In this document: in pieces, positions 11,157 to 62,836 of the stretch
Layout of the letters: each line of letters opens with the position of its first letter
Numbering within the stretch: the stretch's first letter is position 1
Source of the DNA: Actinomycetota bacterium
Lineage (GTDB): Bacteria > Actinomycetota > Geothermincolia > Fen-727 > Anoxymicrobiaceae
Length of the DNA: 64,000 bases
Reading direction: 5' to 3'
Assembly (NCBI GenBank): GCA_018896525.1
Contig: JAHIMR010000072.1
Location: 32,718-96,717 of the forward strand
Notes under the pieces: generated by a model
Told to the model about the DNA's origin: nothing
Databases searched by the model: none
Seen by the model: only the letters and a program-made list of their open reading frames with translations
Program-made: the position numbers and the translations under genes

Positions 11157-11319
11157 GCACCCCGCTCCATAAATACGCTGGCATTCGAACGCCGCTGCAT
11201 CCACTCCGGCTGCGTTCCGCTCCCTCGACGTACTCCAGGAGTACGACTCGGTCGCGCGCCTTGCCGGAGCGGCGCTTCGACGCTCTCGGTGCTCAACCGT
11301 ATTCATGGAACGAGGCACT
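11157..11319 (+). mobile_element. MITE copy 1 (~163-bp imperfect-palindrome element with TIRs; orientation A)
   Basis: Begins ACCCCGCTCCATAAATACGCTGGCATTCGAACGCC, has a central GTACTCCAGGAGTAC palindrome, and ends CGTATTCATGGAACGAGGCACT. Near-identical copies at 15004-15227, 30045-30290, 55112-55275 and 62673-62836. Confidence 0.85.
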
Positions 11320-11343
11320 TGAAGTAGATGTCTGTTATCATAG

Positions 11344-11601
11344 GTGCGTAAGTTTCATGTCTGGAGGTTGGCAATGGAGATGCTGGCAGTGTTGATAGAG
11401 TGGTCCAGCAGGTGGACAATCGTCATGTTCGCCGGCCTCGCGCTGGCGATTATCCTGGGGACCTGGGCCGGCGCGGTGGCCGGCCGTAAAGGCCGTAGCA
11501 CGCAGTTATGGTTCATCCTGGGGTTTTTTCTCCCGATAGTAGGGCTTGTCATTATTTACATACTGAAGCCGGTGAAGCCGTCTGAGGGTGAGAAGAAGTA
11601 G
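11344..11601 (+). CDS. Small hypothetical membrane protein (two TM helices)
   Basis: ORF with GGAGG RBS before the internal ATG at 11374 (MEMLAVLIEW...); hydrophobic segments FAGLALAIILGTWAGAVAG and WFILGFFLPIVGLVIIYIL. The start is either 11344 or 11374. Confidence 0.5.
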   Translation: MRKFHVWRLAMEMLAVLIEWSSRWTIVMFAGLALAIILGTWAGAVAGRKGRSTQLWFILGFFLPIVGLVIIYILKPVKPSEGEKK

Positions 11602-11644
11602 CGCCGGCGCCGACCGTCGAGTCATAGGTGTCACAAGCGGAACG

Positions 11645-12126
11645 CCATAAGCGGTCCACGAGCAAACGCACAAAAGCAAAGCGTCCGGTAATCGTTACAG
11701 CAATTCAGTATCGCTAGATAAGCCGTGCTACGGAGAGCAAGCGGTCCACGAGCAAACGCACACAAGCAAGCGGTGTTGAAACATCTAAGCTGCTGCTACG
11801 GTGTGCAAACGGTCCACGAGCAAACGCACATGAGCAAAGCGTCCGGTAATCGTTACAGCAATTCAGTATCGCTAGATAAGCCGTGCTACGGAGAGCAAGC
11901 GGTCCACGAGCAAGCGCACACAAGCAAGCGGTGTTGAATCGTTACATCCATACATTATCGTGAGACAAGCAGAGCTACGGTGAGCAAGCGCAGCACGAGC
12001 AAACGCACACAAGCAAGCGGTGTTGAATCGTTACATCCATGCATTATCGTGAGACAAGCAGAGCTACGGTGAGCAAGCGCAGCACGAGCAAACGCACATG
12101 AGCAAACGGACGATACACATCTAAGC
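11645..12126. repeat. Complex tandem-repeat array: six copies of a 33-bp core (GCGGTCCACGAGCAAACGCACAMRAGCAAGCGG) embedded in higher-order ~161-bp (x2) and ~90-bp (x2) units
   Basis: Core copies at ~11650, 11740, 11808, 11898, 11985 and 12075. The inter-core segments are themselves repeated (11683-11739 matches 11841-11897; 11938-11984 matches 12029-12074). The array abuts the 3' end of tRNA-Leu. Confidence 0.85.
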
Positions 12127-12213
12127 TGGTGCCGAAGGCCGGACTCGAACCGGCACGGGGTTTTACCCCACTGGTTTTTGAGACCAGCGCGTATACCATT
12201 CCGCCACTTCGGC
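12127..12213 (-). tRNA. tRNA-Leu(CAA), class II with long variable arm, encoded CCA
   Basis: Reverse complement GCCGAAGTGGCGGAATGGTATACGCGCTGGTCTCAAAAACCAGTGGGGTAAAACCCCGTGCCGGTTCGAGTCCGGCCTTCGGCACCA. It folds as a cloverleaf with a 7-bp acceptor stem, anticodon loop CUCAAAA (anticodon CAA), variable stem GGGG/CCCC, T-loop TTCGAGT, and closely resembles E. coli leuX. Confidence 0.93.
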
Positions 12214-12295
12214 AACGTCTTTGAGTTATTATACAGGTAGCGGGGTGCTCCTCGCAGTTACCATGAACCCGCGCGGATAACGGACGGACTCCAAC

Positions 12296-15010
12296 ATGGG
12301 GGCGAGTGTGGCTGAACAGAGAAAGGTCTTGCTGATAGATGGGCATAGCCTTGCCTACAGGGCCTTCTACGCACTTCCCGAAACGATGACTACCGCGGAC
12401 GGACAGCCGACCAACGCGGTCTTCGGATTCACCAGCATGCTGCTAAAGGTGATTGACGAGAAGAAGCCGGACGCTGTGATAGTGGCGTTTGACATCTCTC
12501 GCAAGGACCTGAAGCGGACACATGAGTACCCGGAGTACAAGGCGCACCGCCCGCCCATGCCGGACGAGCTTGGAACACAGATTTCGATGATCGGGGAACT
12601 GCTGGAGCATATGAGGATACCGGCCGTCAGGGCGCAGGGGCACGAGGCGGATGACGTCCTGGGGACCCTGGCGGATGAAGTAGCCGGCCGCGGAGATGAG
12701 GCGATAATCGTTACCGGTGACAGGGACACGCTTCAACTGGTGCGAGACGGGGTGACCGTGCTCATGACCGGGAAGGGGATAACCGAGACCCGGGAGTACG
12801 ACCGGGGCGCGGTTCAAGAGGAGTACGGGGTCCCGCCCGAGAAACTGCCGGAGATCGCCGGTCTCAAGGGCGACTCCTCCGATAATATCCCCGGGGTCCC
12901 GGGCATAGGCATAAAGGGCGCGTCGGCGCTTATCGGAAAGTACGGGTCGTTGGAGAACCTCTACGACCACCTGGAAGAGATAACAGGCCCCAAAAGGAAG
13001 CTATCCCTCGAGGAGAACCGGGAGCAGGCGTTCCTGTCCAGGCGGCTGGCCACTATCGAGAAGGCAGTGCCGGTCCGGCTCGATGTGGGCGAGGTGGAGT
13101 TGGAGACCTGGGATGCGGACGAGGTGCTCGAGTACCTGTCATCGCTCCAGTTCAAGAGGCTTGCCCGGAAGTTCGCCATGATGTACGGGGAGGAATCGGG
13201 TCCCCATGTGAGAGGTTCGGGTGAAGAGCTGCCATATACGGCGGTTCCCGGCGACCGGAAGTCGCTGAAGGAGTTCCTGTCGGGCGCGCGCGATGCCGGG
13301 GAGGTCGCGGTGGCCATCTCGCTCTCCGGGGAGGGTTACTGCGACCTCCGGCTGGAGGGGGCCGCTATAGCCACCGGAAACGCGGTACTGGTGGCCGCCG
13401 GGAGCGATGACGAACCCGCGATGGATGTAGTCGGCGACATCTTGCGCTCGCCGGAGATAGAGAAGTGGTTCCACGGTGCCAAGGAGGCGCTGGAAGCGCT
13501 GGATAAGAAGAAGATGACGGTACGCGGAGTGGCTTTCGACACCAAGGTGGCCGCCTATCTGAAGAACCCATCACTGGGGAAGTATGCTCTCGAGGATATC
13601 TGGGAGAGAAACGTGGGTGCCACGGTCCTGGTGGATGGCGAGTCGGTTCGGGTGCGTGAGCAGGAATCGTTGCTGGCCCCCGACGAGGGTGAGGAGCGGC
13701 TCCGGCTTGCATCCGAGGCGGCCCGTATCTTCAACCTGAAGCGGGTCATCGAAAGGGATATCACCGATCTGGGGATGGCGAGACTCTTCCGCGACATCGA
13801 GATGCCGCTTATCCTGGTGCTCAAGGGCATGGAGGAAACCGGTGTGGCCCTGGACGCGGAAGTGGTGGAGAGGCTGGCCGATGAGGCCGGCCTTGCTCTG
13901 GTGGAACTGAAGGAGGATATACACCGGCTGGCCGGGCATGAGTTCAACGTGAGTTCCACCAGGCAGCTTGGGCGCGTTCTTTTCGAGGAGATGGGTATTC
14001 CTCCAGTCAGGAAGACCAAGGCCGGGTTCTCCACCGACTCCACGGTATTGAGGTCATTGAAGGACGAGTGGGAGATAGCCGGTAAGGTTATCGCCTTCAG
14101 GGAAAACGCCAAGCTCAAGTCCACCTACTACGACACGTTGCCGCGTCTAGTCTGTCCTGAGAGCGGAAGGATACACTGCTCGTTCAACCAGACCGCCACC
14201 TCAACCGGGAGGATATCCTCGAGCAATCCAAACCTGCAGAATATTCCGGTGAGAACGGATGATGGCAGGCGGATCAGGAAGGCGTTCGTTCCCGGAGGGC
14301 CGGGATGGAAGATGCTGGTGGCCGACTACTCACAGATAGAGTTGAGGGTCCTTGCCCATATGTCGGGAGACGAGCGGATGATCGGCGCGTTTGCTTCCGG
14401 GGCCGATATTCACCGGCAGACCGCCGCGGAGATCTTTGGAGTCGAGGAAGGGGACGTCACCGACGACATGAGGCGGAAGGCCAAGGTGGTGAACTTCGGG
14501 ATAATCTACGGCATGGGCCGGTACGGGTTATCGTCCCGGATGGGGATATCGGTGGAACGGGCTACGGAGTACATCGAGGCGTATTTCATAAGGTACGATG
14601 GTGTACGGGAGTACAGAGAGAGGTGCGTAGCTGAAGCGGAGGAGAAGGGGTATGCGGAAACGCTTCTGGGGAGGCGAAGGCTTTTGCCCGAGCTGGCAAG
14701 CCCGAAGAGGCACACCAGGGAGCTGGGGGAGAGGTTGGCGGTAAACACGCCTATACAGGGGACCGCGGCGGATATCATCAAGAAGGCCATGAACGATGTT
14801 GCCTCCGCCATGGGGGAGGATGGGTTCCAGAGCCGGATGATCATGCAGATACACGATGAGCTCGTCTTTGACGTGGCACCCGGCGAGGGTGACGAACTTA
14901 GTACCCTGGTGGTGGGGCTTATGGCCGGGGTCCTCGACCTGCGAGTTGCCTTGAAGGTGGAGGCCGGCCTGTTCGATAACTGGGGACAGGCTAAGTACCC
15001 CGCTTCATAG
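12296..15010 (+). CDS. polA: DNA polymerase I
   Basis: 904 aa with a 5'-3' exonuclease N-terminus (LLIDGHSLAYRAFYAL), Klenow-like polymerase motifs A/B/C (DYSQIELR..., RRKAKVVNFGIIYG, QIHDELVFD). The last codons and stop lie inside the MITE terminus. Confidence 0.95.
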   Translation: MGASVAEQRKVLLIDGHSLAYRAFYALPETMTTADGQPTNAVFGFTSMLLKVIDEKKPDAVIVAFDISRKDLKRTHEYPEYKAHRPPMPDELGTQISMIGELLEHMRIPAVRAQGHEADDVLGTLADEVAGRGDEAIIVTGDRDTLQLVRDGVTVLMTGKGITETREYDRGAVQEEYGVPPEKLPEIAGLKGDSSDNIPGVPGIGIKGASALIGKYGSLENLYDHLEEITGPKRKLSLEENREQAFLSRRLATIEKAVPVRLDVGEVELETWDADEVLEYLSSLQFKRLARKFAMMYGEESGPHVRGSGEELPYTAVPGDRKSLKEFLSGARDAGEVAVAISLSGEGYCDLRLEGAAIATGNAVLVAAGSDDEPAMDVVGDILRSPEIEKWFHGAKEALEALDKKKMTVRGVAFDTKVAAYLKNPSLGKYALEDIWERNVGATVLVDGESVRVREQESLLAPDEGEERLRLASEAARIFNLKRVIERDITDLGMARLFRDIEMPLILVLKGMEETGVALDAEVVERLADEAGLALVELKEDIHRLAGHEFNVSSTRQLGRVLFEEMGIPPVRKTKAGFSTDSTVLRSLKDEWEIAGKVIAFRENAKLKSTYYDTLPRLVCPESGRIHCSFNQTATSTGRISSSNPNLQNIPVRTDDGRRIRKAFVPGGPGWKMLVADYSQIELRVLAHMSGDERMIGAFASGADIHRQTAAEIFGVEEGDVTDDMRRKAKVVNFGIIYGMGRYGLSSRMGISVERATEYIEAYFIRYDGVREYRERCVAEAEEKGYAETLLGRRRLLPELASPKRHTRELGERLAVNTPIQGTAADIIKKAMNDVASAMGEDGFQSRMIMQIHDELVFDVAPGEGDELSTLVVGLMAGVLDLRVALKVEAGLFDNWGQAKYPAS

Positions 15011-15227
15011 ATACGGTTAAGCACCGAGAGCGTCGAAGCGTCGCTCCGGCAAGGCGCGCGACTCAGTGCCTCGTTCCATAGATACGGTTAAGCACCGAGA
15101 GCGTCGAAGCGCCGCTCCGGCAAGGCGCGCGACCGAGACGTACTTCCTTAGTACTTCGAGGGAGTGGAACGCAGCCGGTGTGGATGCGGCGGCGTTCGAA
15201 TGCCAGCGTATTCATGGAGCGGGGTAC
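15004..15227 (-). mobile_element. MITE copy 2 (orientation B) with an extra ~60-bp tandem partial copy of its left end overlapping the polA stop
   Basis: The 15004-15064 half-copy (CATAGATACGGTTAAGCACCGAGAGCGTCGAAGCG...) is followed by the full element 15065-15227, which ends ...CGTATTCATGGAGCGGGGTAC. Confidence 0.85.
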
Positions 15228-15360
15228 TGAATAAGGGGCCCGGACGCACGGTCCAGGGCACGCGTTATACAGATGCAAACCTACCTGATGGCAACTTGCG
15301 GCGATATTACGTATGTGCTATTCATAATAACGTACGTGTTCACGAGAGGGAAGGAAAACC

Positions 15361-17058: not shown

Positions 17059-17066
17059 AGCGGGCA

Positions 17067-18046: not shown

Positions 18047-18262
18047 TCCTTGCTGGACAAGTATTACGGTGACATCCGCGTTATTTCCGCTATCTGTTCC
18101 AGCAGTAATCGTAGCATATCCGTACGAAATCGGCCTTCAGAGGGTGGTTATCCGGTGCTTGAACGGATTGAACTCCCAGGGTGGCGGGATTACAATCAGG
18201 AGCAAGGGGTTCCGTGTTAAGCACAGGTCCCCTTTGATTAATCTCCTACGGGGGTAAGAACG

Positions 18263-29943: not shown

Positions 29944-30044
29944 TGTCGCTTCTCGCGAAAAGGCAGGGTCCGGGTGTTACAGGTGAACGGTTGACCACGG
30001 CCCCGTTGCAATAAGAATGAGATGACCCTACAATTACTGTTGTT

Positions 30045-30290
30045 CCGTCTCATAAATACGGTGAAGCACCGAGAGCGTCGGTGCGCCGCGCCGGCAAGGC
30101 GCGCGACCGAGTCGTACTCCTGGAGTACGTCGAGAGAGCGGAACGCAGCCGGAGTGGATGCAGCGGCGTTCGAATGCCAGCGTATCTATGTAGCGGGGTA
30201 CCTAGCGTACTCACTGAGTACGTCGCAGGGAGCGGAACGCAGCAGGAGTGGATGCAGCGGCGTTCGAATGCCATTGTATTTGTGAGACGG
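30045..30290 (-). mobile_element. MITE copy 3 (orientation B) plus a ~88-bp tandem partial duplication of its right half
   Basis: The full unit 30045-30201 runs CATAAATACGGTGAAGCACCGAGAGCG...CGTATCTATGTAGCGGGGTAC. The half-copy 30203-30290 repeats the central palindrome and right arm (GTACTCACTGAGTAC...GAATGCCATTGTATTTGTG). Confidence 0.85.
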
Positions 30291-30333
30291 GACACTAGAG
30301 ATTGATTCCAATTGGTTTCGGAGGAGACGGTAG

Positions 30334-32614: not shown

Positions 32615-32889
32615 CGTTGGCGGTTCCGGTGAGGACGTGCGCCGGGTGTGGCGCCAGAAGGCCCAGGAGTGAAATGATAAGGGTCGCCGCCGACAGAAAC
32701 GGAAACGTGCATGTAACCGGTAAGATGAGTACTCCGGGACGAGGTGCATATATATGCCCCAGGCGGGCATGCCTGGGGACAGCGCGTGATAAGGGAGGCT
32801 TGCGCCGGGGATTGAAGGTCCATGTCTCGGATGCGGTCTTTGAGGAGCTTGGGCAGTTAATAGGGAGCCAACGAGGACAGATTGGGTAA
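32611..32889 (+). CDS. ylxR: YlxR/RnpM family protein (DUF448)
   Basis: RTCAGCGARRPRSEMIRV...ICP motif typical of YlxR; lies between nusA and infB. Confidence 0.8.
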   Translation: MTLAVPVRTCAGCGARRPRSEMIRVAADRNGNVHVTGKMSTPGRGAYICPRRACLGTARDKGGLRRGLKVHVSDAVFEELGQLIGSQRGQIG

Positions 32890-35386
32890 TATAAGGGTTC
32901 ACCAACTGGCAACCGAACTACGGAAATCAAACCGTGAGGTTTCTGACAGGCTTCGCAAACTCGGAATAGAGGCCAAGACCAACCTCTCGTCTGTAACTCC
33001 CGAGGATTCAAACAGGGTAAGGGTGTCATTCGGCATGGAACCCCTCAAAATCGTGAAGCCGAAGCCGAAGAAGAAGCTCGCCAAGAAGAAGCCCGCCGCA
33101 AAAAAGGAAAAGAAGCCGGCCGGGAAGAAGCCCGCCGCAAAAAAGGAAAAGAAGCCGGCCAGGAAGAAGCCCGCCGGGAAGAAACCCGCTGCGAAAAAGC
33201 CCGCTGCAAAAAAGGAAAAGAAGCCGGCCGGGAAGAAGCCGGCCGGGAAGAAACCGGCCAAGAAGAAGCCCGCCGCAAAAAAGGCAACGAAGCCTGCCCG
33301 GAAGAAAGAGCCTGCAAAGAAGGCGGTCGCCGGCCCCCTCCCAGCACCGGCAGAGGAGTCAGGGGAGAAGGCGCCTGTCAAGAAGGTGCCCGCAAAGGCC
33401 AGGATTGAGACAGGAAAGCCTGAAAGGGCTGCATCGGCGGTAGAGACAAAGAAAGCGCCGGTCAGGCCGAAGGTGAAAGAGGCACGGGTACCCGAGAAAA
33501 CGGAGCAGAAGAAACTGCGAGTAGCCCCCCCCGATAAGAAGGCCAGGGCCGCCCGACCCTCGGGAAGAAGGAAGGGTGTTTATCGGTTCGTACCTCGAGG
33601 GAGGAGGGCGCCGTCCAGGGCGAAGGGCCCCCCCAGCACAAAGGCCAGGAAACACCTGCGCGTGCCTTGCGGAGTAACAGTGAAGGAGTTCGCTCAGATG
33701 GCGGGCCTGACCCCGTCTGATGTACTCAAGAGGTTGGTGGATTTCGGAGAGACGCTGACCGTGAACCAGTCGATACCGAACGATGCCTTGAAGCTCCTCT
33801 CCGAGAGTATTGGGGTCGAGATAAAGATAAAGGCCCCCCGGTTGGCTGAATTCGAGGAGATAGTCGACGACCCCGAGGACCTGGTAGATAAGCCACCGGT
33901 AGTCACGGTAATGGGCCACGTGGACCACGGAAAAACACTACTGCTTGACGCCATACGAAAGAGCGATGTGGTGGGGTCCGAGGTGGGGGGGATCACCCAG
34001 CACATAGGCGCCTACCAGATTGAGTTCAACGGAAAGATCATTACATTCATTGATACGCCCGGGCACGAGTCGTTCACCGCCATGAGAGCCCGTGGTGCGG
34101 GAATAACAGACATAGCGATACTGGTGGTAGCGGCGGATGACGGTGTAATGCCGCAGACCCTGGAGGCTCTCGACCACGCCAATGAGGCGGACGTGCCGGT
34201 GATAGTTGTTGTGAACAAGATAGACAAGCCGGATGCCGATCCCCACAGGGTGAGGCAACAGCTGTCCGAAAGGGGATTGCTTCCCGAGGAGTGGGGCGGT
34301 GAACATGTGTTCACCGACGTTTCCGCCAAGGAAGGCGACAATATCGATCACCTCCTGGAGATGATCTTGTTGATCTCCGAGATGCACGAACTAAAGGCAA
34401 ACACGAACGCTCCGGCAAGCGGTGTCGTGGTGGAGGCCGGGCTCGACAAAGCGCGGGGAGCGGTTTCCACGTTCCTCGTACAACGGGGCACAGCGCGCAT
34501 CGGGGACGTTGTAGTCGCGGGAACGGAATGGGGGAAGATAAGGGCGATGTTCGACGACCGGGCGCAGCCCGTCAAGAGCGCGGGGCCCGCGACACCGGTT
34601 GAGGTCCTTGGGCTTTCGAATCCTCCCATAGCAGGTGACGAATTCAGGGTTGTCGACAGTGAGAAGATGGCGCGGCAGATGGCCGACAGACAAAGGGCGG
34701 AGAAAAAGCGGCAGGAGCCAGGGGTGAATCGCGAGGTTTCCCTCGAGAACTTTCTTGATCGCATCAGGGAAGGTGAGATATCGCGTTTGAAGCTGGTGAT
34801 GAAAACAGACACCCAGGGCTCCCTGGAAGCGATACTCGATTCGCTTGAGAGACTATCCACCGACGATGTCAAGCTCGATGTAATCCACAGTGGTGTGGGA
34901 GGAATCAGCGAGACGGACATAATGCTCGCTTCCGCGAGTGAGGCTATAGTGATGGGCTTTCACGTAAGGCCGGAACCCAAGGCATCCCGGGCGGCGGAAC
35001 TGGAGAACGTCGAGATAAGGACCTACCAGGTCATATACGACCTGACTGATGACGTACAGGACGCGCTTATCGGGATGCTCGAGCCTGTATATGAGGAAGA
35101 GGAGCTCGCGAGGGCCGAGGTCAAGACGACGTTCCGCGTGCCGGGGATGGGAGTTATCGCGGGCTCATACATAGTCGAGGGCGAGATTAGCAGGAACAAT
35201 AGGGTGAGGGTGGTCCGCGACGATACTGTTGTCTACGACAGCAAAGTATCGTCCCTCAGGCGGTTCAAGGACGACGTCAAGTCGGTCGCCATGGGATACG
35301 AGTGCGGTATTGGGATACAGGACTTCCAGGACCTGAAGGAAGGCGATATCCTGGAGGTGTACGAGATGCGAGAGGTACCCCGTTAG
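32882..35386 (+). CDS. infB: Translation initiation factor IF-2 with Lys/Ala/Pro-rich repetitive N-terminal region
   Basis: G domain ([29 protein letters not shown]) and C-terminal beta-barrels. The N-terminus carries [28 protein letters not shown]-type repeats. Confidence 0.95.
33085..33300. repeat. Tandem ~42-48-bp DNA repeats inside infB encoding the K/A/P-rich N-terminal repeats
   Basis: GAAGAAGCCCGCCGCAAAAAAGGAAAAGAAGCCGGCCGGGAA recurs three or more times, with variants. Confidence 0.8.
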
Positions 35387-44117: not shown

Positions 44118-46328
44118 GTGGCTAAAAGCGGAAAGAAGGGCAAGGCCGGGGGCACGAGGAAGAAAGCCGGCGGAAAGAAAGAGAAAGCGTCCAGCGGCAA
44201 GGAGAAGAAAAAGGGCGATAGGGAGGAGGCCGGAAGGCGGCTGACACCCGGCCGTATCAGGGCTATATATGGGGTATCGTTTGCCGCGCTGGCGGTGTTC
44301 ACGTTCCTGTGCGTGTTCGCGTCCGCAAGCGCGGGGATAGTAGGCGGCGGCGTACGTGACGCTATGGCGTGGACGCTGGGCCTGGGGAGGTACGTGGTTC
44401 CGTTCGCCTTTCTCGCGGGCGCGGTGATGGCCTTCAAGAAGCCGGAGGTGCGGGTGTGGTTGCTGGCGGTGGGAACGGCGATCATGTTCGTGTCGGTGCT
44501 GGCGCTGCTGCATATAACTACCGACCCGTCGGTCATGTTCGAGAGTAATGAACTGATGAGCGGAGGCGGGGTTGTCGGCGCGGTGATCGCCTGGCCGCTG
44601 GTTAACCTCGTGGGGACGATAGGCGCCTACATATTCGTAGTGGCGGCCCTGATTTCGGGCATCGTGATTGCCTTCGAGGAGCAGATATCGGCGGGATGGC
44701 GGTCGCTTGTTAAGAAGAGGGCAGGGGAGACGGAACAGGCCGCTCCCGAGAAAACAGTACAGGGCCCAAAGCCCGCCGCCGAACGGCGGAAAGGCAAGTC
44801 GCAGGACGTCAAGGTGTACCCGTCAAAGCCGATTCCGACCAGGGAATTACAAGAGGAACCCAGCGGTCAACTGCCGATGAAGATCGCGAAGCCGAAGTCC
44901 GGAAAGTACAAGTTGCCACCGATATCGATTCTGACAAAGGGCCACGACAAAGCATTTTCCAAGCAGAGCAACGAGGAGAGAAAGAAAGCCATCGAGCACA
45001 CGTTGCAAAGCATGGGCGTCGACGCCAGGGTAGTGAAGGTTTCCAAGGGCCCCACCGTATCACTGTTCGAGGTGGAGGTGGGAACCGGCGAGAAGGTAAA
45101 GAGGGTCACCGAGTTGGAGCAGGACATCGCCTACGCGCTTGGCTCCCCGGACATCCGGATATACTCTCCAATACCGGGCCGGCAGGCGATAGGCATAGAG
45201 GTCCCTAACAACATGAGGGACACGGTGTTACTGGGTGATGTCATGCAGACCCTTGAGCCGGTGAAGCCACATAACCAGTTGACGATGGCGGTGGGTAGGG
45301 GCATGTCCGGAGAACTGGTGGTCCTGGACCTGGCCCAGCTTCCGCACCTGATGCTGGCTGGTTCGACCGGGGCCGGGAAATCGTGCTGCATAAACAGCCT
45401 GATCTGCTGCCTTCTGTTCAGGAACCGCCCCGACGAGGTCAAGCTGATAATGATTGATCCCAAGTTTGTGGAGTTCACCTGGTATGACGGGCTCCCACAC
45501 CTCCTGTGCGACGTCATCAACGAGCCTGAGTTCGCCGCCAAGGCGCTTCTCTGGGCGGTGAACGAGATGGACAGGCGTTACCGGTTACTGCAAAAGCAGA
45601 AGGTCGTGCATATCGACGATTACAACGCCATCGCGATAAAGGACGATGAGCTGGAGAAGCTTCCCAAGATCGTGATAGTAATCGACGAGTTGGGAGATCT
45701 CATGATAGTGGCCCGCAGGGAGGTCGAGAGCTCCATAAGCCGGCTGACCGCCAAGGCGCGGGCTGTGGGTATACACATGATTATAGCCACCCAGAGGCCA
45801 TCCGTGGACGTGATAACCGGCGTTATCAAGAATAACATCACCGCCAGGATAGCCTTTCAGGTTGCAAGCAACGTGGATTCCAGGACAATACTTGGAACCA
45901 AGGGCGCGGAGAAGCTGCTGGGCAAGGGGGACATGCTTCTGGATCCGGGGAACATCCCGCAACCGGAGCGAGTGCAGGGGGCCCTGGTACAGCAGAAAGA
46001 GATCGAGTTCCTGACGGGGTATATCAAGCAGCAGAAGGCCGGCGATGGAGTGTCAATAGATCTGGACGGGGTCAAGATATCCACCAGGGACAAGTTAGAG
46101 GACAGGGACCCCCTGCTGGACGAGGCCGCCGAGTTTGTGGTGCTGGCCGGCGAGGCCTCCGCCTCGATGTTGCAGACTACTCTAAAGGTAGGGTACGCGC
46201 GGGCCCGACGGATTATTGTGGAGATGTCGGAACTGGGCATAGTTGGCCCGCACCAGGGAAGCAAGCCCAGGAAGGTGCTTCTTACACCCGAGGAGTTCCG
46301 GGAGTGGAAATCCAGGTCCAACGACTGA
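44118..46328 (+). CDS. ftsK: DNA translocase FtsK/SpoIIIE
   Basis: Lys-rich N-terminus, four TM helices, linker, then the motor domain (LAGSTGAGKSCCINSLI Walker A) and a C-terminal gamma wHTH. Confidence 0.93.
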   Translation: MAKSGKKGKAGGTRKKAGGKKEKASSGKEKKKGDREEAGRRLTPGRIRAIYGVSFAALAVFTFLCVFASASAGIVGGGVRDAMAWTLGLGRYVVPFAFLAGAVMAFKKPEVRVWLLAVGTAIMFVSVLALLHITTDPSVMFESNELMSGGGVVGAVIAWPLVNLVGTIGAYIFVVAALISGIVIAFEEQISAGWRSLVKKRAGETEQAAPEKTVQGPKPAAERRKGKSQDVKVYPSKPIPTRELQEEPSGQLPMKIAKPKSGKYKLPPISILTKGHDKAFSKQSNEERKKAIEHTLQSMGVDARVVKVSKGPTVSLFEVEVGTGEKVKRVTELEQDIAYALGSPDIRIYSPIPGRQAIGIEVPNNMRDTVLLGDVMQTLEPVKPHNQLTMAVGRGMSGELVVLDLAQLPHLMLAGSTGAGKSCCINSLICCLLFRNRPDEVKLIMIDPKFVEFTWYDGLPHLLCDVINEPEFAAKALLWAVNEMDRRYRLLQKQKVVHIDDYNAIAIKDDELEKLPKIVIVIDELGDLMIVARREVESSISRLTAKARAVGIHMIIATQRPSVDVITGVIKNNITARIAFQVASNVDSRTILGTKGAEKLLGKGDMLLDPGNIPQPERVQGALVQQKEIEFLTGYIKQQKAGDGVSIDLDGVKISTRDKLEDRDPLLDEAAEFVVLAGEASASMLQTTLKVGYARARRIIVEMSELGIVGPHQGSKPRKVLLTPEEFREWKSRSND

Positions 46329-46446
46329 TTCAGAGACCGGGTCGTGTTGCACTTTTACCTGCGTATTGATAACCTTGTTTTCGGCGAATTGGGCTGTGGC
46401 AACCCGGGGGTATTATCTGGATGGAATGTGATATGGGAGGCTTGAA

Positions 46447-47988: not shown

Positions 47989-47990
47989 GC

Positions 47991-49848: not shown

Positions 49849-49870
49849 CAGTTTTGCGGGCATAAGGCGG

Positions 49871-51726: not shown

Positions 51727-51789
51727 CACTTCTTCGGCTTCAATGGTAGTTTAGACTGGCCTGTCGAAAGGGCTGTCCGATGGTAATTA

Positions 51790-51815: not shown

Positions 51816-51826
51816 AAGGAATTACG

Positions 51827-54622: not shown

Positions 54623-54625
54623 GAG

Positions 54626-55099: not shown

Positions 55100-55111
55100 A
55101 GGGGAGTAACA

Positions 55112-55275
55112 AGTGCCTCGTTCCATAGATACGGTTAAGCACCGAGAGCGTCGAAGCACCGCTCCGGCAAGGCGCGCGACCGAGTCGTACTCTTGGAGTA
55201 CGTCGAGGGAGCGGAACGCGACCGGAGTGGATGCAGCGGCGTTCGAATGCCAGCGTATTTATGGAGCGGGGTGCT
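55112..55275 (-). mobile_element. MITE copy 4 (orientation B) between lspA and lgt
   Basis: AGTGCCTCGTTCCATAGATACGGTTAAGCACCGAGAGCG...GTACTCTTGGAGTAC...CAGCGTATTTATGGAGCGGGGTGCT. It begins 13 nt after the lspA stop and overlaps the putative lgt start. Confidence 0.85.
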
Positions 55276-56049
55276 AAGACTGTGCACCGGGTGCTATTCA
55301 ACATAGGGAATCTAACGGTCTACTCCTATGGAGTGTTCCTGGCCCTGGGGTTTGTGACGGCGACCATTGTAGCCAGGCGGCGGCTTGCCGAGACCTTCCG
55401 TAACCCTGACATAATCCTTGACCTGGTGCTGGCGGCGGTTGTCGGCGGCATAGCGGGGGCGCGGATCTGCTACATCATAGGGCACTGGTCGTACTACATG
55501 GCCAACAAGGGCGAGATATTGAAGCTCAACATGGACGGGCTGGTGTTCTATGGAGGGCTCCTGCTGGGGTTTGTGCTTGCCGTGCTGGTGGGAAGGTGGA
55601 GGAACGTCAGGTTCTGGGAGGTCATGGACCTGGGCGGGCTGAGCGTTCCCATCGCGCTGGGGGTCGGCAGGATAGGTTGCCTGCTGAACGGATGCTGTTA
55701 CGGGAAGCAGACCTCTCTGCCGTGGGGAATAACGTATCCCGCGACCACCGGCCTGGCAGGCCCCAGGCATCCAACCCAGGTGTACGAGTTACTACTGGAC
55801 CTCGCCCTGTTCGCTTTCCTGTGGTCCAAGAGGGACAGCTGGGAGAGGGATGGCACGTCGTTCTGGTTGTTCGTGATGGGGTACGCGGCCATTCGGTTCA
55901 CAATGGAGTTCTTCCGCGAGCATACCCTTTCCAACGCCGCACTGACTTTCCAGATGGTCAGCGTTGCACTTTTCCTGGTGGCGGGGGCGGTTCTGCTGCT
56001 CCGGTACCGGCTCCTGCCGGAGACCGGCGACAGGGGCCTGCCACTCTGA
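55261..56049 (+). CDS. lgt: Prolipoprotein diacylglyceryl transferase
   Basis: Lgt signature (GGLLLGFVLAVLVGRW..., RIGCLLNGCCYGK). The start is uncertain: ATG 55261 lies in the MITE terminus, and GTG 55291 is an alternative. The ORF-track start 55231 is inside the MITE. Confidence 0.88.
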   Translation: MERGAKTVHRVLFNIGNLTVYSYGVFLALGFVTATIVARRRLAETFRNPDIILDLVLAAVVGGIAGARICYIIGHWSYYMANKGEILKLNMDGLVFYGGLLLGFVLAVLVGRWRNVRFWEVMDLGGLSVPIALGVGRIGCLLNGCCYGKQTSLPWGITYPATTGLAGPRHPTQVYELLLDLALFAFLWSKRDSWERDGTSFWLFVMGYAAIRFTMEFFREHTLSNAALTFQMVSVALFLVAGAVLLLRYRLLPETGDRGLPL

Positions 56050-56996: not shown

Positions 56997-57029
56997 TGAC
57001 ACGCTGGTGCCTGGCACCAGCGTGTCATT
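56995..57029. repeat. Palindromic family element (AATGACACGCTGGTGCC-T-GGCACCAGCGTGTCATT) acting as a bidirectional terminator between convergent rluD and aroF2
   Basis: Perfect 17-bp arms. It overlaps the rluD stop (56994-56996) and ends at the stop of the minus-strand DAHPS gene (57030-57032). Confidence 0.85.
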
Positions 57030-58043
57030 TTAGACGCTGCGGCCGATGATGGAGGCGATGGCACTTAACTTGCTCATCATTGAATCGAACTGCCCGAGGG
57101 TAAGCGCCTGCGGACCATCGCAGAGGGCGCAGTCGGGGTCGGGATGGACCTCGACCATGATTCCATCAGCGCCGGCGGCCACCGCGGCGAGAGACATGGG
57201 CTCGACAAGATAGGAGAAACCGGTTGAGTGCGATGGGTCAACCACTACCGGCAGGTGAGAGAGTCGCTTGATAACCGGCACCGCGGAGAGGTCGAGGGTG
57301 TTCCTTGTTTTGGTCTCGAAAGTAGTGATTCCGCGTTCGCAGAGGATGACATCGCGGTTTCCCTCGATAATCACGTACTCCGCGGCGAGGAGGAGGTCTT
57401 TCACCGTGGCGCTGGGCCCCCGCTTCAACATGACCGGGTGACCGCTTCTTCCCACCTCGGTAAGCAGGACGAAGTTCTGCATGTTGCGGGCCCCAACCTG
57501 GAGGATATCGGCGTACTCGCAGACAAGTTCCACGTTGCGGGGGTCGGTAACCTCGGTGATGATCGGGAGGCCGGTCTCATCGCGGGCGCGGGCCAGCAGT
57601 TCCAGGGCCTCTTCGCCAAGGCCCTGGAAGGAGTAGGGGGATGTACGGGGCTTGTAGGCCCCTCCCCTGAGCACCCGGGCGCCGCTCCTCTTCACGCTGA
57701 GAGCGATCTCCATCAACTGCTTCTCGTTCTCGACCGCACAAGGGCCGGCGATGACCGTCACGTCGACGCCGCCGAACTTCACACCTCTGACATCTATGAC
57801 CGTGGGATCCGGATGGGCTTCCCGCCCGGCGAACTTGTACGGTTGCAGGATGGGGATGATGCTCTCCACCCCGGGAAGGCCCTGCATGTTCTCCACGACC
57901 CTGGTCTTATCGTCGCCGACTATACCGATGACCGTCTTCTGAACGCCGTAAATAGGGTGCGTGCGCAGTCCGTATGAGTGGACCTTCTCGATAACGCTTT
58001 CGACCTGTTCCTCCGTCGCCTGCGACGACATTACTATTATCAT
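57030..58043 (-). CDS. aroF: DAHP synthase type I-beta, second paralog (with N-terminal FL regulatory domain)
   Basis: Same architecture and motifs as the 1789-2805 gene (GPCAVENE, KPRTSPYSFQGLGEE, MLKRGPSAT, VVVDPSHSTG). By eye the two proteins are paralogs at roughly 55% identity. Confidence 0.9.
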   Translation of the reverse strand: MIIVMSSQATEEQVESVIEKVHSYGLRTHPIYGVQKTVIGIVGDDKTRVVENMQGLPGVESIIPILQPYKFAGREAHPDPTVIDVRGVKFGGVDVTVIAGPCAVENEKQLMEIALSVKRSGARVLRGGAYKPRTSPYSFQGLGEEALELLARARDETGLPIITEVTDPRNVELVCEYADILQVGARNMQNFVLLTEVGRSGHPVMLKRGPSATVKDLLLAAEYVIIEGNRDVILCERGITTFETKTRNTLDLSAVPVIKRLSHLPVVVDPSHSTGFSYLVEPMSLAAVAAGADGIMVEVHPDPDCALCDGPQALTLGQFDSMMSKLSAIASIIGRSV

Positions 58044-58104
58044 TTTCTCTTAAGCTCCCCTTCCCGGTCTGATGATTAACGTCCTTACGGATTTAACAGG
58101 ATAA

Positions 58105-59100
58105 TCATATTAGCCCGTTTATACTGTTCTTATCAATAGTTTCATCGGCCTCACCCCAGGTGAGAACGCCATCTTCGTCCATGTAGGCCACGCCACGGCT
58201 ACCGCCAACCCTGTCAAGCGAGTGCTTGCTGAGGTAGCCCTCCACGATTCCCTTGAGGCCTTCGATCCTGGAGAGACAGTTCGCGACCTGTTTGTGGGTC
58301 GCAACAAGCTCGTCCACCGCCTGTCCGACGTCCAGTGGCGGCGCGGCGGGCCTGCGAGCGGGCGGCGGGTTATCTTTCAACAGAGGGCACTCCCCAAGGA
58401 AATCGCACCAGGGGCACAGACTGTTCTCACAAGGATCAAAATGCTCCGCCTCAATGGACCTGACCACATCCTTTATCTCTTCCAGCGCCCTCCGGGCACG
58501 ATCGGGAGTCACCTGGAGAGTGTGGCGGTGATTCATCAGCAGGTAGTGGAACGTTACCTTCTCCGGTGCGATATCCCATATCCTCCCGGCTGCTATGTGA
58601 TAGATGGTAAGCTGAAGGTCCTTCTCGAGCCTCCACGCAGGCGGCAGGCGGCGGTTGGTCTTGTAGTCGATTATCTCGAACCCGCCTTCCGGGTCCTTGT
58701 CCAGGCGGTCTATGACCCCGCTCAGCTCGCAGATCCCGACGTCAATCTTGAACCTGTGTTCCAGCGCAGCGGGAACGCGGAAATCCCCCGCGTACTTACG
58801 GTAGTAGATCTCCAGGGCGGATTTCGCCTGGCAGAAGTACTTTGTCTCCTCCTCGGGAGAGCTATAACCGTCGCTGGACCAGCACTGATCAAGGTAATCC
58901 AGGAGGTCGGGGAGCGGGCAGGGGTCGGGTGTGGGGACCGAATAGAACCACTCCAGCGCCTTATGCAGGCTGTTTCCGAAGCTGAGGGCGGGACTCGGCA
59001 ACGCGGGCCTGCCATCGACGTACCTGAGGCGATACTGAAGCGGACAGGTCTCATACGAAGATATCGCGCTATAGCTCAGTTTCAAGCTCATCCTCCCCAT
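58105..59100 (-). CDS. Cas4-like PD-(D/E)XK nuclease with Fe-S cysteine staple (1 N-terminal plus 3 C-terminal Cys) and ~95-aa C-terminal extension
   Basis: N-terminal Cys (ETCPLQYRLRY), nuclease motifs (GVIDRLD..., EIIDYKT, QLTIYHIAAG), C-terminal C-x4-C-x2-C-x5-C (CENSLCPWCDFLGEC). The start is probably MGRMSLKL.../MSLKL... (about 59091-59100) rather than 59184. No cas genes or CRISPR nearby. Confidence 0.75.
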   Translation of the reverse strand: MGRMSLKLSYSAISSYETCPLQYRLRYVDGRPALPSPALSFGNSLHKALEWFYSVPTPDPCPLPDLLDYLDQCWSSDGYSSPEEETKYFCQAKSALEIYYRKYAGDFRVPAALEHRFKIDVGICELSGVIDRLDKDPEGGFEIIDYKTNRRLPPAWRLEKDLQLTIYHIAAGRIWDIAPEKVTFHYLLMNHRHTLQVTPDRARRALEEIKDVVRSIEAEHFDPCENSLCPWCDFLGECPLLKDNPPPARRPAAPPLDVGQAVDELVATHKQVANCLSRIEGLKGIVEGYLSKHSLDRVGGSRGVAYMDEDGVLTWGEADETIDKNSINGLI

Positions 59101-59165
59101 GTCAGCGGTCCTTGTTAAGATAATTACACAACTGGTGGCGATTTCCTTATGAGAACCATGATAAC

Positions 59166-62100
59166 GTGAAGGAGAACGCCACAACCCAAAGAAATATTAT
59201 AAGGTCGCCAGGGAGCCGGGAGATTAATTTGTCACAGGAGTTTGTTCATCTCCATTTGCATACCGAGTATTCCATTCTGGATGGCGCCTGCCGGATAAGC
59301 GAAGCGCTCGAGGCCGCCCGGGAGATGGGAATGGACTCCCTGGCGATAACCGACCACGGGGTCATGTACGGGGTCCTGGAGTTTTACCAGAAGGCGCTCA
59401 AGCACGATATGCGCCCTATACTCGGCGTAGAGGTGTACGTGGCTCCCCGGGGGAGGCTTTCCCGCGCCGGGGGCATGGAGGAGCGGCCGAACCACCTGAT
59501 CCTGATCGCGGAGAACAACACCGGGTACGAGAACCTTATGCGTATCGTCACCAGGGGTTTCACCGAGGGCTTCTACTACAAGCCCAGGGTCGACAAGGAG
59601 GTCCTCACCGAGCACAGCGAAGGCCTGATTGCGCTAAGCGCCTGCCTGAAAGGGGAGATACCGGTCGCCCTACTGGCCGGGGATGACGCCCTGGCGGCAA
59701 CTGTCGCGGACGAGTACCTGCGAATCTTCGGTGAAAATAACTTCTACATCGAACTGATGAACCACGGCATAGAGGAACAGGTCCGCGTGAACCCGATGCT
59801 GGTGGAGTTCGCCCGCGGGAAGGGCATCGGACTGGTGGCCACCAACGACATCCATTATGTAAAGCCCGAGGACAGCAAGGCCCACGACTATCTTCTGTGC
59901 ATCCAGACCGGAAAACTGCTGGCCGAGCAGTCTCGCATGAGATTCTCCACCGAGGAGTTTTATATGAAGTCCCCCGACCAGATGGCGGACCTTTTCCCCG
60001 ATTTCCCCGAGGCGCTGTCGAACACGGTTGATATAGCATCGCGATGCAACGTGGAAATCCCGCTGGATACCGTCTATCTGCCCCGTTACGACCCGCCGGA
60101 GGGTTACGATCTGGATTCCTTCCTGGAGCACCTGGCGCTCGAAGGAGTCGAAGAGCGCTTCACCGAGATATCCGTGGAGGTCACACAGCGGCTGGAGAAG
60201 GAGCTGAAAATCATACAGGAGTTGGGGTTTTCCGGCTACTTCCTTATCGTATGGGATTTCGTGAAGTACGCCAAGGAAAAGGGGATAAAGGTGGGGCCGG
60301 GGAGAGGATCGGCGGCCGGAAGCCTGGTCGCCTACGCCCTGGGGATTACCACTATCGACCCACTCAAGTACGGGTTGCTGTTCGAGCGTTTCCTCAACCC
60401 GGAGAGGATAGCGCTTCCCGATATCGACATCGATTTCAGCCACGACAGGCGGTCGGAGGTCATAGAGTACGTTGGCAACAAGTACGGGAAGGACAGGGTT
60501 GCACAGATAATATCGTTTTCCCGGCTGAACACGCGGGCGGCGGTGAAGGATGTGGGCAGGGTCATGGACATCCCGTACGCCCGGATGGATACATTATCCA
60601 AGATGGTTCCCGAGGATCCAAAGATGAACATCGAGCTGGCACTGAAGCAGAGCAGCGAACTCAGGAACGCTTACGAAAACGATAAGGAGGTCCGGGAGAT
60701 AGTCGACACCGCCCGGAGCCTGGAGGGCCTGGTCAGGCACGACACCATCCACGCGGCGGGCGTGGTGATAGCCGACAACGAGCTGAATAAGTACACACCA
60801 CTCCAGCGAAAAGGCGGCGACGATTCGGAGGTCGTGACCCAGTACGACATGTACAATATCGAGAACCTGGGCTTGCTTAAGGTGGACCTGCTGGGCTTGA
60901 GGAACCAGAGTCTCCTGGAGCTCGCGGTCAACCTCATCAACGACAGGTATGGCGGGGAGCTCGAAATAGACAGCATTCCCATGGATGACCCTGAGACGTT
61001 CAAGCTTGTGCAGAGGGGCGAGACGGTAGGGACGTTCCAGCTCGCCAGCCCGGGCATGAGGGCGCTGATGAGAGACCTGGTGCCGACCAGGTTCGAGGAG
61101 ATCATCGCGCTGATAGCGCTATACAGGCCGGGCCCCCTTTCCAGTGACATGCACAAGGTGTTCGTGGAGCAGAAGCATGGGCGAAAGGCGGTGAGTTATC
61201 CCCACCCGTCCCTGGAGGAAGTGCTGAAGGAAACCTACGGAGTGATCGTCTACCAGGAGCAGGCGATGCGGATATCACAGGTGCTTTCCGGATACTCGGG
61301 GCTGGAGGCGGACCAACTCAGGAAGGCGATGGCCAAGAAGCAGGAAGATAAGATGGCCGAACACCGGGATAAGTTCATCGGGGGCGCCTGCGACAGGGGA
61401 GTGGAAAAGATTGTCGCCACCCGGGTCTTCGACCTGATCGAGAAGTTCGGCGGTTACGGCTTCAACAAGTCTCACAGCACCGCCTACGCGTTTGTGTCGT
61501 ACCAGACCGCGTACCTCAAGGCCCACTACCCGTCAGAGTACATGGCCGCGCTCATGACCATCTACATGGATAACCAGGACCGGTTGGTGGAGTACATCAA
61601 CGAGTGCCGGCGGATGGGCCTGGAGGTCAGGCTGCCGGACATAAACAAGAGCGACGGTAACTTCACCCCGTTCGATAAGTATGTCCTTTTCGGGTTGTCA
61701 GCGGTAAAGAACGTCGGCACAGCGGTGGTGGAACAGATAATCAAAGCCCGTGATGAGGGCGAGGAGTTCAAGAGTTTCATGGAGTTTTGCGACCGTGTCC
61801 CGGCGTCGGTGACCAACAAGAAGACGCTGGAGAGCTTTATCAAGGCCGGCGCGTTCGACACGATAGAGGCAGACAGAAGCCGGCTCCTGGCTACCTACGA
61901 TGTGGCCGTGAGTATCGCCCAGCGCAAGAGGAGGGAGAAGGAGGAGGGGCAGTTCTCACTGTTCGATGACTCCAACGACGTGGATGACGTGTCCAGTGGC
62001 GGGCTTCCCGACGATTACACCGAGATACCGAAGAGGCAGTTGCTGGCCTGGGAAAGGGAGATGCTGCGGGTTTTCGTCAGCGACCATCCGCTGACCGACT

Positions 62101-62672
62101 ACCGGGAACTGCTGTCGGGTTTTACCGATATCGAGATATCCCAGATATCAAAGGATATGGACAAGGCGGTGTTGACCATCGGCGGCCTTATTACCGGGCT
62201 GGAGAAGCGGTATAACAAGGCGGGGAAGCCGTGGGCGAGCTTTACGCTGGAGGATTTCTCGGGATCGATGGACGTGCTGCTGTTCCACCACAAGTACGAG
62301 AAGTTCGCCGATGCGCTCTCGGAAGACGCTATAGTACTGGTCAAGGGGAGGGTGGACCTCAAGGACAGCTCACGGAAGCTGCTGGCGGACGAGGTACGGT
62401 TACTTCCCAGGAACTCGATGCGTCCTACCCACCTGGTGCTCAAGATAGACGCCGCCTGGTTTACCGAGGATAGGACCTCGCAGGTGCAGGAGGTCCTGAT
62501 GCAGCATCCCGGGGAGTTGCAGGTGTACTTTCAGCTGTACGAGAACGGTGAGGAAACGACCACCGTTAGATTGGGGGATTTATACTCGGTGGGGACGGAC
62601 AGTGACGTTCTGGGCAAGCTCAGGGCGCTTCTCGGGGAGTCCGCGGTGGCCCTGGAGTACCCGGAGATCTGA
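59166..62672 (+). CDS. dnaE: DNA polymerase III alpha subunit (DnaE1-type)
   Basis: PHP domain (HLHLHTEYSILDGA), polymerase core, OB fold. Start GTG 59166 (AAGGAG RBS) or TTG 59227. Its stop is immediately followed by a MITE. Confidence 0.95.
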   Translation: MKENATTQRNIIRSPGSREINLSQEFVHLHLHTEYSILDGACRISEALEAAREMGMDSLAITDHGVMYGVLEFYQKALKHDMRPILGVEVYVAPRGRLSRAGGMEERPNHLILIAENNTGYENLMRIVTRGFTEGFYYKPRVDKEVLTEHSEGLIALSACLKGEIPVALLAGDDALAATVADEYLRIFGENNFYIELMNHGIEEQVRVNPMLVEFARGKGIGLVATNDIHYVKPEDSKAHDYLLCIQTGKLLAEQSRMRFSTEEFYMKSPDQMADLFPDFPEALSNTVDIASRCNVEIPLDTVYLPRYDPPEGYDLDSFLEHLALEGVEERFTEISVEVTQRLEKELKIIQELGFSGYFLIVWDFVKYAKEKGIKVGPGRGSAAGSLVAYALGITTIDPLKYGLLFERFLNPERIALPDIDIDFSHDRRSEVIEYVGNKYGKDRVAQIISFSRLNTRAAVKDVGRVMDIPYARMDTLSKMVPEDPKMNIELALKQSSELRNAYENDKEVREIVDTARSLEGLVRHDTIHAAGVVIADNELNKYTPLQRKGGDDSEVVTQYDMYNIENLGLLKVDLLGLRNQSLLELAVNLINDRYGGELEIDSIPMDDPETFKLVQRGETVGTFQLASPGMRALMRDLVPTRFEEIIALIALYRPGPLSSDMHKVFVEQKHGRKAVSYPHPSLEEVLKETYGVIVYQEQAMRISQVLSGYSGLEADQLRKAMAKKQEDKMAEHRDKFIGGACDRGVEKIVATRVFDLIEKFGGYGFNKSHSTAYAFVSYQTAYLKAHYPSEYMAALMTIYMDNQDRLVEYINECRRMGLEVRLPDINKSDGNFTPFDKYVLFGLSAVKNVGTAVVEQIIKARDEGEEFKSFMEFCDRVPASVTNKKTLESFIKAGAFDTIEADRSRLLATYDVAVSIAQRKRREKEEGQFSLFDDSNDVDDVSSGGLPDDYTEIPKRQLLAWEREMLRVFVSDHPLTDYRELLSGFTDIEISQISKDMDKAVLTIGGLITGLEKRYNKAGKPWASFTLEDFSGSMDVLLFHHKYEKFADALSEDAIVLVKGRVDLKDSSRKLLADEVRLLPRNSMRPTHLVLKIDAAWFTEDRTSQVQEVLMQHPGELQVYFQLYENGEETTTVRLGDLYSVGTDSDVLGKLRALLGESAVALEYPEI

Positions 62673-62836
62673 GTACCCCGCTCCATAGATACGCTGGCAT
62701 TCGAACGCCGCTGCATCCACTCCGGCTGCGTTCCGCTCCCTCGAAGTACTACAGGAGTACGTACTCGGTCGCGCGCCTTGCCGGAGCGGCGCTTCGACGC
62801 TCTCGGTGCTTAACCGTATCCATGGAACGAGGCACT
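62673..62836 (+). mobile_element. MITE copy 5 (orientation A) starting at the nucleotide after the dnaE stop
   Basis: GTACCCCGCTCCATAGATACGCTGGCATTCGAACGCC...GTACTACAGGAGTAC...CGTATCCATGGAACGAGGCACT. Confidence 0.85.

Follow-up and report, generated by a model that had tools for sequence, protein, structure and literature searches.

A recurrent hairpin in the spacers of a 64-kb window

We analysed a 64,000-nt stretch of DNA from an Actinomycetota bacterium (assembly GCA_018896525.1, contig JAHIMR010000072.1; hereafter the window, meaning the whole stretch), in which a short hairpin element recurs between housekeeping genes. Independent repeat detection and alignment recovered five full copies with 84–97% pairwise identity (mean column identity 89%), a density of about one copy per 13 kb. 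An nhmmer search of the window with a model built from these five returned the same full copies together with two half-copies, at E-values of 1e-55 to 1e-59, which exclude chance as the source of the repeats. The element is a 164-nt imperfect palindrome around a central GTACTCCnGGAGTAC, with paired termini AGTGCC.../...GGYACT, and its terminal inverted repeats (TIRs), AGTGCCYCGTTCCATRRATACGG ... CGTATYTATGGAGCGGGGYACT, pair across 22 bp. Repeat detection, alignment and folding thus bear out the original prediction, made from the letters of the window, of a repeat family with inverted termini, a central GTACTCCnGGAGTAC palindrome and a long-hairpin fold. Its coordinates and strands were likewise right, except that two of its ranges, 15004–15227 and 30045–30290, run a full copy and a half-copy together. 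The copies and the two informative empty sites are given below, the strand being the better-folding strand of each copy.

11156–11319, minus strand: copy 1 (c1), full, between a Zn-ribbon membrane-protein gene (10341–11120, plus strand) and a small membrane-protein gene (11344–11601, plus strand), antisense to both.
12214–12295, no strand: empty site in the tRNA-Leu/polA spacer, where relative L173 has an internally deleted copy.
14993–15064, plus strand: 5′ half-copy, the outer 5′ arm (model positions 3–77) of an older copy at polA–rpsA.
15065–15228, plus strand: copy 2 (c2), full, with an inner 5′ arm, the centre and a 3′ arm matching the outer arm; sense to polA and rpsA.
30039–30202, plus strand: copy 3 (c3), full, between tpiA and secG, sense; its 5′ arm, of the CCGTCTCAT subfamily, pairs with the extra downstream 3′ arm.
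30206–30296, plus strand: 3′ half-copy, an extra centre and 3′ arm (model positions 79–168), the outer half of a nested pair.
46326–46342, no strand: empty site, where relative L098 has a full copy (flanks about 91% identical).
55112–55275, plus strand: copy 4 (c4), full, within the lspA–lgt spacer, sense.
62672–62836, minus strand: copy 5 (c5), full, abutting the dnaE stop codon (TGA, 62670–62672), between convergent genes.

Pfam assigned the neighbouring genes to PolA, S1, TIM, LspA, Lgt and DnaE, while the identity of SecG was confirmed only via its orthologue in relative L180. These are the housekeeping neighbours that had been claimed; the accompanying statement that all copies are intergenic fails at copy 2, whose half-copy encodes the end of polA. 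The polA frame enters the half-copy (14996–15010), so that its last four codons (YPAS) and its stop come from the element: the ancestral stop, AAG TAG in L173, has become AAG TAC CCC GCT TCA TAG in the window, the insertion having destroyed the TAG and given four codons and a new stop. The longest lgt open reading frame (ORF) begins inside copy 4 (55231–55281), and its orthologues begin just downstream. Automatic gene calls near these repeats are likely to carry wrong starts and ends. The element itself has no coding capacity: it holds only spurious overlapping ORFs, and its variation tracks base-pairing and not codons.

Strand-specific folding and covariation

On its minus strand, copy 1 is predicted to fold with −104.4 kcal/mol (z −9.0), against −65.3 (z −2.3) on the plus strand. 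The same asymmetry runs through the alignment of 71 distinct copies on which the folding and covariation analyses were made. All 71 fold better on the same strand, with means of −96.6 versus −72.7 kcal/mol under RNA parameters and −45.3 versus −39.8 under DNA parameters. Standard pairs fill 98.2% of the cells of the consensus structure; double-sided changes occur at 10 pairs (67 cells, counted over sequences), and none of 500 shuffles reached any of the five measures used. G:U and U:G together make up 10.8% of paired cells, as against 0.8% for A·C and C·A, and one-sided changes are almost always to wobble. Strand-biased deamination was considered as a source of the G:U asymmetry and rejected, substitution directions relative to the consensus being balanced; this balance points to structural constraint rather than mutational bias. 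Compensatory change is concentrated in the terminal helix (9/20 pairs), and subfamilies in other Actinomycetota metagenomes likewise differ by coordinated double changes (CCGGC/GCCGG versus CCCGC/GCGGG, for example). Conservation reaches 94–95% in the arm interiors, only part of it accounted for by the 23-mer used for retrieval, and 85–88% at the termini. Isolated arms form no local hairpin on either strand (z = 0.45, 1.73, −0.31 and 1.54 versus shuffles). An apparent tRNA T-arm mimic in GGCGTTCGAATGCC was discarded, its flanking bases lacking the 5-bp stem.

Neighbouring genes were called from codon usage. Relative to both neighbours, the strand that folds well runs sense for 28 copies and antisense for 29; a further 13 copies sit in divergent gene pairs, 9 in convergent pairs and a single one within a gene. 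Among the window copies, three (c2, c3 and c4) run sense, c1 runs antisense and c5 has convergent neighbours. The 28:29 split makes it most likely that the structural constraint acts on propagation and not on host mRNA function; the strand-specific fold would then be a requirement of the element's own propagation. Wobble tolerance and compensation on one strand only, whatever the orientation to genes, further lead us to infer a single-stranded, folded step: propagation would pass through that particular strand, as single-stranded DNA (ssDNA) or RNA.

These observations bear on the possibility that the copies are host-selected, cis-acting RNAs in the manner of ERIC repeats, serving as stabilising or RNase III-processing hairpins, or as terminators without a U-tract, and kept for the regulation of their neighbours. 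Three of the five window copies are indeed sense within operons, RNA from the sense strand folds into a highly stable hairpin that includes the 22-bp terminal helix, wobble-tolerant covariation is a classic signature of RNA structure, and ERIC-type repeats have been reported to influence mRNA stability (PMC3184786). Against this, orientation is random with respect to transcription, and each window copy is missing in close relatives that retain the same operons. In the one orthologous pair with both sites filled, divergence is faster in the copy (76.7% identical) than in the flanks (93.7%). The element was found to contain neither a sigma-70-like promoter nor a U-tract terminator, and Rfam 15 gave no match at gathering threshold in the window and none at E ≤ 10 on copy 4. 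We therefore consider host selection very unlikely, and we find no support for the ERIC-like role in mRNA stability that had been proposed for the copies. Sense copies, if co-transcribed, would hold a perfect 22-bp helix, which is a plausible RNase III substrate. RNase III-type cleavage or read-through barrier effects on host transcripts would nevertheless be a by-product and not the element's raison d'être, no selection for cleavage being seen.

Insertion polymorphism, junctions and nesting

Filled and empty alleles were paired by masking the element and comparing loci, and orthologous loci were then fetched via RpsA, LspA and TpiA homologues. Five filled/empty pairs with flanks 87–92% identical were found among the fetched loci, one of them with the window as the empty allele (46326–46342 versus L098), and for each of the five window copies, one or more close relatives have an empty site.

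c1, between the membrane-protein genes: empty in L173.
c2, polA–rpsA: empty in L173; L174 has one intact copy, whose 5′ junction and 3′ flank are those of the window.
c3, tpiA–secG: empty in L180.
c4, lspA–lgt: empty in L175–L179 (five relatives, LspA 83–96% identical), where the genes lie only 6–18 nt apart.
c5, after dnaE: empty in L177.

More than 10 sites are polymorphic in all, the five window copies and the two sites empty in the window among them. L178 and L179 have a copy in the c5 spacer, and L182 has one in the c3 spacer, in each case at another position and in the opposite orientation; these are independent insertions. Relative L177 retains 20 kb of syntenic DNA (LspA 90% identical) with zero copies. 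The empty sites exclude a conserved, position-specific element, so that the prediction of a dispersed mobile repeat stands for all five copies. The comparisons show that copies were gained lineage by lineage and that activity is recent.

Target-site duplications (TSDs) were sought around 69 unique, non-nested copies at every boundary offset for k = 2–8, and none was found: the best agreement was 35% at k = 2 and did not exceed 25% at k = 3. TWA, YTAR and TA duplication models were each inspected by hand and rejected. At four sites the junctions were resolved, as listed here with a slash at each boundary.

c4: filled GTAACAA/GTGCC...GGTGCTAAG/ACTGTG; empty (L175) GTAACAAACTGTG.
c3: filled AATTACT/GTTGTTCC...GGGACACT/AGAGATT; empty AATTACTTGAGATT (L180: AATTACT/TGAGATT).
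polA–rpsA: filled CYAAGTA/CCCCGC...GGGTACT/GAA; empty CCAAGTAGAAG.
tRNA–polA: filled (L173) CTTTGAG/AACCTCGC...GCACTAAAGGA/TATTATA; empty (window) CTTTGAGTTATTATA.

Read in detail, the last of these is CTTTGAG/T/TATTATAC in the window and CTTTGAG/AACCTCGC...GCACTAAAGGA/TATTATAG in L173. None of the four sites carries a duplication, at most one target base is lost, and three of the four have 2–5 nt of microhomology at one junction. We treat these junction details as leads that later divergence may blur, the flanks being 87–96% identical. A circular-permutation (sliding-ends) model for the shifted junctions was abandoned when the offsets failed to sum consistently.

Flank preference is weak and symmetric (C-T/C-W before AGTGCC and W-A/G-G/A after GGYACT), and the bases at −1 and +1 are alike in 38 of 69 copies, versus about 27 expected. 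The flanks do not act as a hidden extension of the hairpin, complementarity from −1/+1 to −8/+8 not exceeding chance. Nor do hairpins or terminators appear to serve as insertion targets, the 40-nt flanks folding no better than shuffles (mean z about −0.2). Copies frequently sit on or next to stop codons and occupy very short spacers: 20 of the 57 copies between co-directional genes overlap the upstream stop codon by 1–2 nt.

The absence of a TSD removes the hallmark of the class to which the element had been assigned, the miniature inverted-repeat transposable elements (MITEs). These are defined by TIRs around a core that lacks a transposase gene, are flanked by TSDs and are mobilised in trans (PMC3184786). 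A classical MITE would here be a deletion derivative of an insertion sequence (IS) with a DDE transposase, moved as double-stranded DNA by a TIR-binding enzyme whose blunt or 1-base-staggered cleavage hides the duplication. Much of the picture agrees: the element is small, non-coding and without an internal transposase gene, has inverted termini, occurs in high copy number in intergenic positions and is polymorphic for presence and absence. The −1/+1 identity noted above would also fit a 1-bp duplication in some copies, and a fragment of an IS1595-type transposase lies at the tpiA–secG site in L181. However, there is no TSD of 2 bp or more, and the resolved junctions show no duplication of the −1/+1 bases. 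Conservation is lowest at the termini, where changes compensate one another, whereas a TIR bound by protein would behave in the opposite way; strand-specific wobble tolerance has no part in the recognition of double-stranded DNA. Searches of plasmid, phage and viral collections and of the sampled loci turned up no IS sharing these ends, and the IS1595 fragment has no homologue near other copies. On balance, we regard a classical MITE as unlikely.

The imprecise ends and the microhomology would also suit an RNA-mediated (retro)element, in which a folded transcript of a master copy is reverse-transcribed and inserted by microhomology-primed synthesis. The gap between strands, 24 kcal/mol under RNA parameters versus 5.5 under DNA parameters, points the same way, wobble being better tolerated in RNA. 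Yet no reverse transcriptase, internal promoter or tail was seen in the sampled loci, four junctions are too few to carry the case, and divergence of the comparison genomes can mimic imprecise ends. The probability that we give to this route is very small, the smallest of those considered here.

Copies also insert into one another. Complete nested composites, consisting of an outer 5′ arm, TC, a full inner copy, TAT(A/G), the centre and the outer 3′ arm, were found at 13 loci. Five further loci have a full copy plus a 3′ half, one (copy 2 of the window) has a 5′ half plus a full copy, and one triple nest also exists. In 19 of 19 composites, the copies share the same orientation and the same internal break, which falls between positions 77 and 78 of the model, immediately on the 5′ side of the apical stem-loop. 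This junction recurs across outer arms from different subfamilies, which favours repeated site-specific insertion over a single founder. At polA–rpsA, L174 holds the ancestral state, an un-nested single copy with junctions as in the window. The two half-copies, previously described as tandem partial duplications of one arm, are accordingly best read as remnants of nested insertions trimmed by recombination between direct arms, a step that we infer. One apparent orthologue of copy 3, L134, was rejected in the course of this comparison, as it lacks tpiA and secG and merely has a nested composite of the same subfamily.

Family range, candidate movers and the preferred reading

The original prediction counted a five-copy family, which holds for the full copies of the window; the family as a whole is well over a hundred copies strong. 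A scan of 163 related loci by nhmmer gave 231 matches, 126 of them full length, representing about 88 sites distinct by their flanks. More than 116 metagenome stretches carry an exact 23-mer of the element. A 19-mer marks at least 11 sites in another Actinomycetota metagenome-assembled genome (MAG), KR13_S3.mb.41, and also matches diverged relatives in two other MAGs, one from Actinomycetota and one from Acidobacteriota. Among named homologues, those closest to the window's RpsA and TpiA (66–79% identity) belong to Candidatus Geothermincolia / Anoxymicrobiaceae MAGs. The window sequence also stands in contig JAKLSA010000108.1 of MAG GCA_022014015.1 and in one JGI and one ENA metagenome. Plasmid and phage collections and IMG/VR yielded no carrier of the element. 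Nothing linking Geothermincolia with transposable elements was found in the papers searched, and a broader search on stem-loop repeat families and MITEs in Actinobacteria returned nothing relevant. Miniature derivatives of about 45–90 nt that keep the two termini occur in L135 (6044–6084), L137 (929–1013) and L144 (14169–14253); such terminus-only forms, which are internal deletions, indicate that the family also decays through loss of the centre.

The acidobacterial relative, contig L031, contains two dispersed hairpin repeats (342–697 and 5825–6134) of about 310–365 nt, 90% identical to each other. They match the element in the inner core (59.5 bits) but not in the outer stems, which are unrelated; their two strands are nearly equal in folding, and an Rfam scan gave chance matches only. 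The element may represent an undescribed class of mobile hairpin, with a strand-specific ssDNA or RNA intermediate and duplication-free, imprecise integration at microhomologies. Its enzyme would be neither an HUH protein of the RAYT or IS200 type nor a TIR-binding DDE transposase, and the shared inner core would be the recognition module. We hold this reading tentatively and rate it as unlikely.

The search for a mobilising enzyme covered about 1.3 Mb of DNA flanking copies in the sampled loci. No transposase was found there, nor, in keeping with the original prediction, in the window. Genes bracketed by close or inverted copies are housekeeping genes (DisA, DnaA, DnaJ, HIT, an epimerase and others), and clustering of multi-copy ORFs in the sampled loci revealed no transposase. 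Among the 5,284 ORFs of these loci, an HUH...Y regular expression returned nothing credible, and the best phmmer match to E. coli RayT had an E-value of 1.6. An IS with the element's termini was found neither in the 1.3 Mb of loci nor in plasmid or phage collections or IMG/VR. The single transposase-like trace lies in L181 (3408–3602; TpiA 87% identical), where a truncated 64-aa IS1595-type Zn-ribbon ORF directly follows tpiA at the same AATTACT site as copy 3, on a contig that ends 110 nt past the fragment. It was rejected as the mover, having no homologue near any other copy.

The element works most like a REPIN or a MITE and is a member of neither as defined. REPINs are doublets of inverted REP sequences that form hairpins and are associated with RAYT transposases (Bertels and Rainey 2011, PMC3116915). 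Under a REPIN-type explanation, such a doublet would be moved as folded ssDNA by a single-copy, domesticated HUH tyrosine transposase (RAYT). Both are high-copy extragenic hairpins with compensatory changes, no TSD, half-element (singlet) remnants and ordered clusters (PMC3116915), recognition as a folded single strand is proposed for both, and the strand-specific fold of the present element holds with DNA parameters. The arms of the element, by contrast, are not short REP palindromes and show no REP-like local hairpin on either strand. Its conserved blocks are interior and its ends variable, and at about 164 nt it is roughly twice the usual REPIN size (about 70–110 nt). The RayT and HUH/Y searches in the sampled DNA were empty, and the host is a deep-branching actinomycetote, in contrast to Proteobacteria and Cyanobacteria. 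A REPIN-type system thus appears improbable here.

IS200/IS605 elements have two separate subterminal hairpins and no TIR, and they target the 3′ side of a fixed tetra- or pentanucleotide, with an orientation bias linked to replication. They resemble the present element in lacking a TSD, in having strand-specific folded DNA as a plausible substrate and in tolerating G·T mispairs. They differ from its single end-to-end hairpin, whose arms have no local hairpins, and may also differ in target choice and orientation: here the flank preference is a weak three-base one at both ends, and orientation relative to genes is 28:29. ERIC/IRU repeats are imperfect palindromes of about 127 bp in Enterobacteriaceae and Vibrio, for which, as for the present element, we know of no transposase. 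The likeness extends to similar size, transcribed intergenic regions beside housekeeping genes and variants with internal indels. ERIC-type repeats have TIRs, target duplications and a flanking 5′-TA-3′ (PMC3184786), whereas neither TA nor a target duplication is seen at the present termini, the phylum and GC content differ, and the copies described here are lineage-specific and recent. The Correia/NEMIS, RUP and Nezha MITEs share with the element a 100–170-bp, non-coding long hairpin with inverted termini, positions near genes with co-transcription, and presence/absence at strain level. Those families have defined TIRs, TA or longer duplications and often promoters or IHF sites, in contrast to the missing TSD, variable termini and lack of promoter-like sites here. 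Integron attC sites, with R″/R′ core sites (RYYYAAC ... GTTRRRY) at their ends and cassette arrays beside intI, were dismissed from the sequence of the ends (AGTGCC.../...GGYACT) and the dispersal of copies among housekeeping operons.

Taken together, the element is probably best explained as a family of non-autonomous, recently active mobile DNA hairpins, 164 nt long and non-coding, occupying at least 100 intergenic sites in an uncultured Actinomycetota lineage. The near-invariant arm interiors, with their conserved internal loops, would be the likely recognition module of a trans-acting enzyme, while the termini would need only to pair. Insertion proceeds without target duplication and with the loss of at most about one base. 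Copies insert repeatedly into one another at one internal point, and recombination between direct arms would then yield the ‘half + full’ and ‘full + half’ arrangements.

Several points weigh against this explanation of mobile hairpins. The putative single-stranded intermediate is read from strand-asymmetric covariation alone, and the covariation cells count sequences rather than events and are inflated by subfamily inheritance. Retrieval of the alignment set by an exact 23-mer biases conservation in the 3′ arm, where that 23-mer lies. Orientation shows no bias relative to gene direction, taken as a proxy for replication, where IS200/IS605-type ssDNA transposition would predict one. At the resolved junctions, the ends of the element are displaced from AGT...ACT by −6 to +4 nt; such shifts would be odd for any precise transposase, but they could reflect divergence of the comparison genomes (flanks 87–96% identical). 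Finally, ‘non-autonomous’ refers to the absence of a mobilising enzyme from the roughly 1.3 Mb of sampled flanks.

Some further features of the window lie beside or apart from the element. Between the small membrane-protein gene and tRNA-Leu(caa) (12127–12213, minus strand), a tandem array of about five 89-nt units (11640–12116; 86% matches) has no Rfam match and is missing in L173, which has element fragments there. The octamer CAAACGCA (11663–12096; 62892–62913) occurs 8 times versus 1.03 expected. The 89-nt array accounts for five of these, and two more sit in short CAAACGCAAGG repeats immediately 3′ of copy 5; the octamer may represent either a binding motif or another small family of repeats. 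Two DAHP-synthase paralogues (1762–2805, plus strand, and 57030–58043, minus strand), 54 kb apart, each have DAHP_synth_1 and ferredoxin-like domains by Pfam and are 73% identical at the nucleotide level over 225 nt. Near the start of an 834-aa ORF (32882–35386), which is probably infB, given its position after nusA, lie coding repeats rich in Lys, Ala and Pro and spaced by 15 and 39 nt (33070–33321). An 857-aa ORF (5960–8533, minus strand) with internal repeats of about 315–321 nt and shorter D-x-D-x-D-like repeats looks, from its sequence, like a repeat-domain surface protein.

Small palindromic repeats abound in bacterial genomes but, to our knowledge, the mechanism of spread is known for only a few systems, namely DDE-derived MITEs and RAYT-REPINs. 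The present family belongs to a little-studied lineage. Its abundance and recent activity, its duplication-free insertion into essential operons, in spacers down to 6 nt, and its strand constraint, which does not depend on host transcription, make it a tractable case for studying how hairpin repeats propagate. In practical terms, the repeat will break assemblies and mislead gene calls in these MAGs through false ORF starts and ends. If the mover is new, the interest of the family rises substantially; if it is an ordinary IS, this would be one more MITE family.

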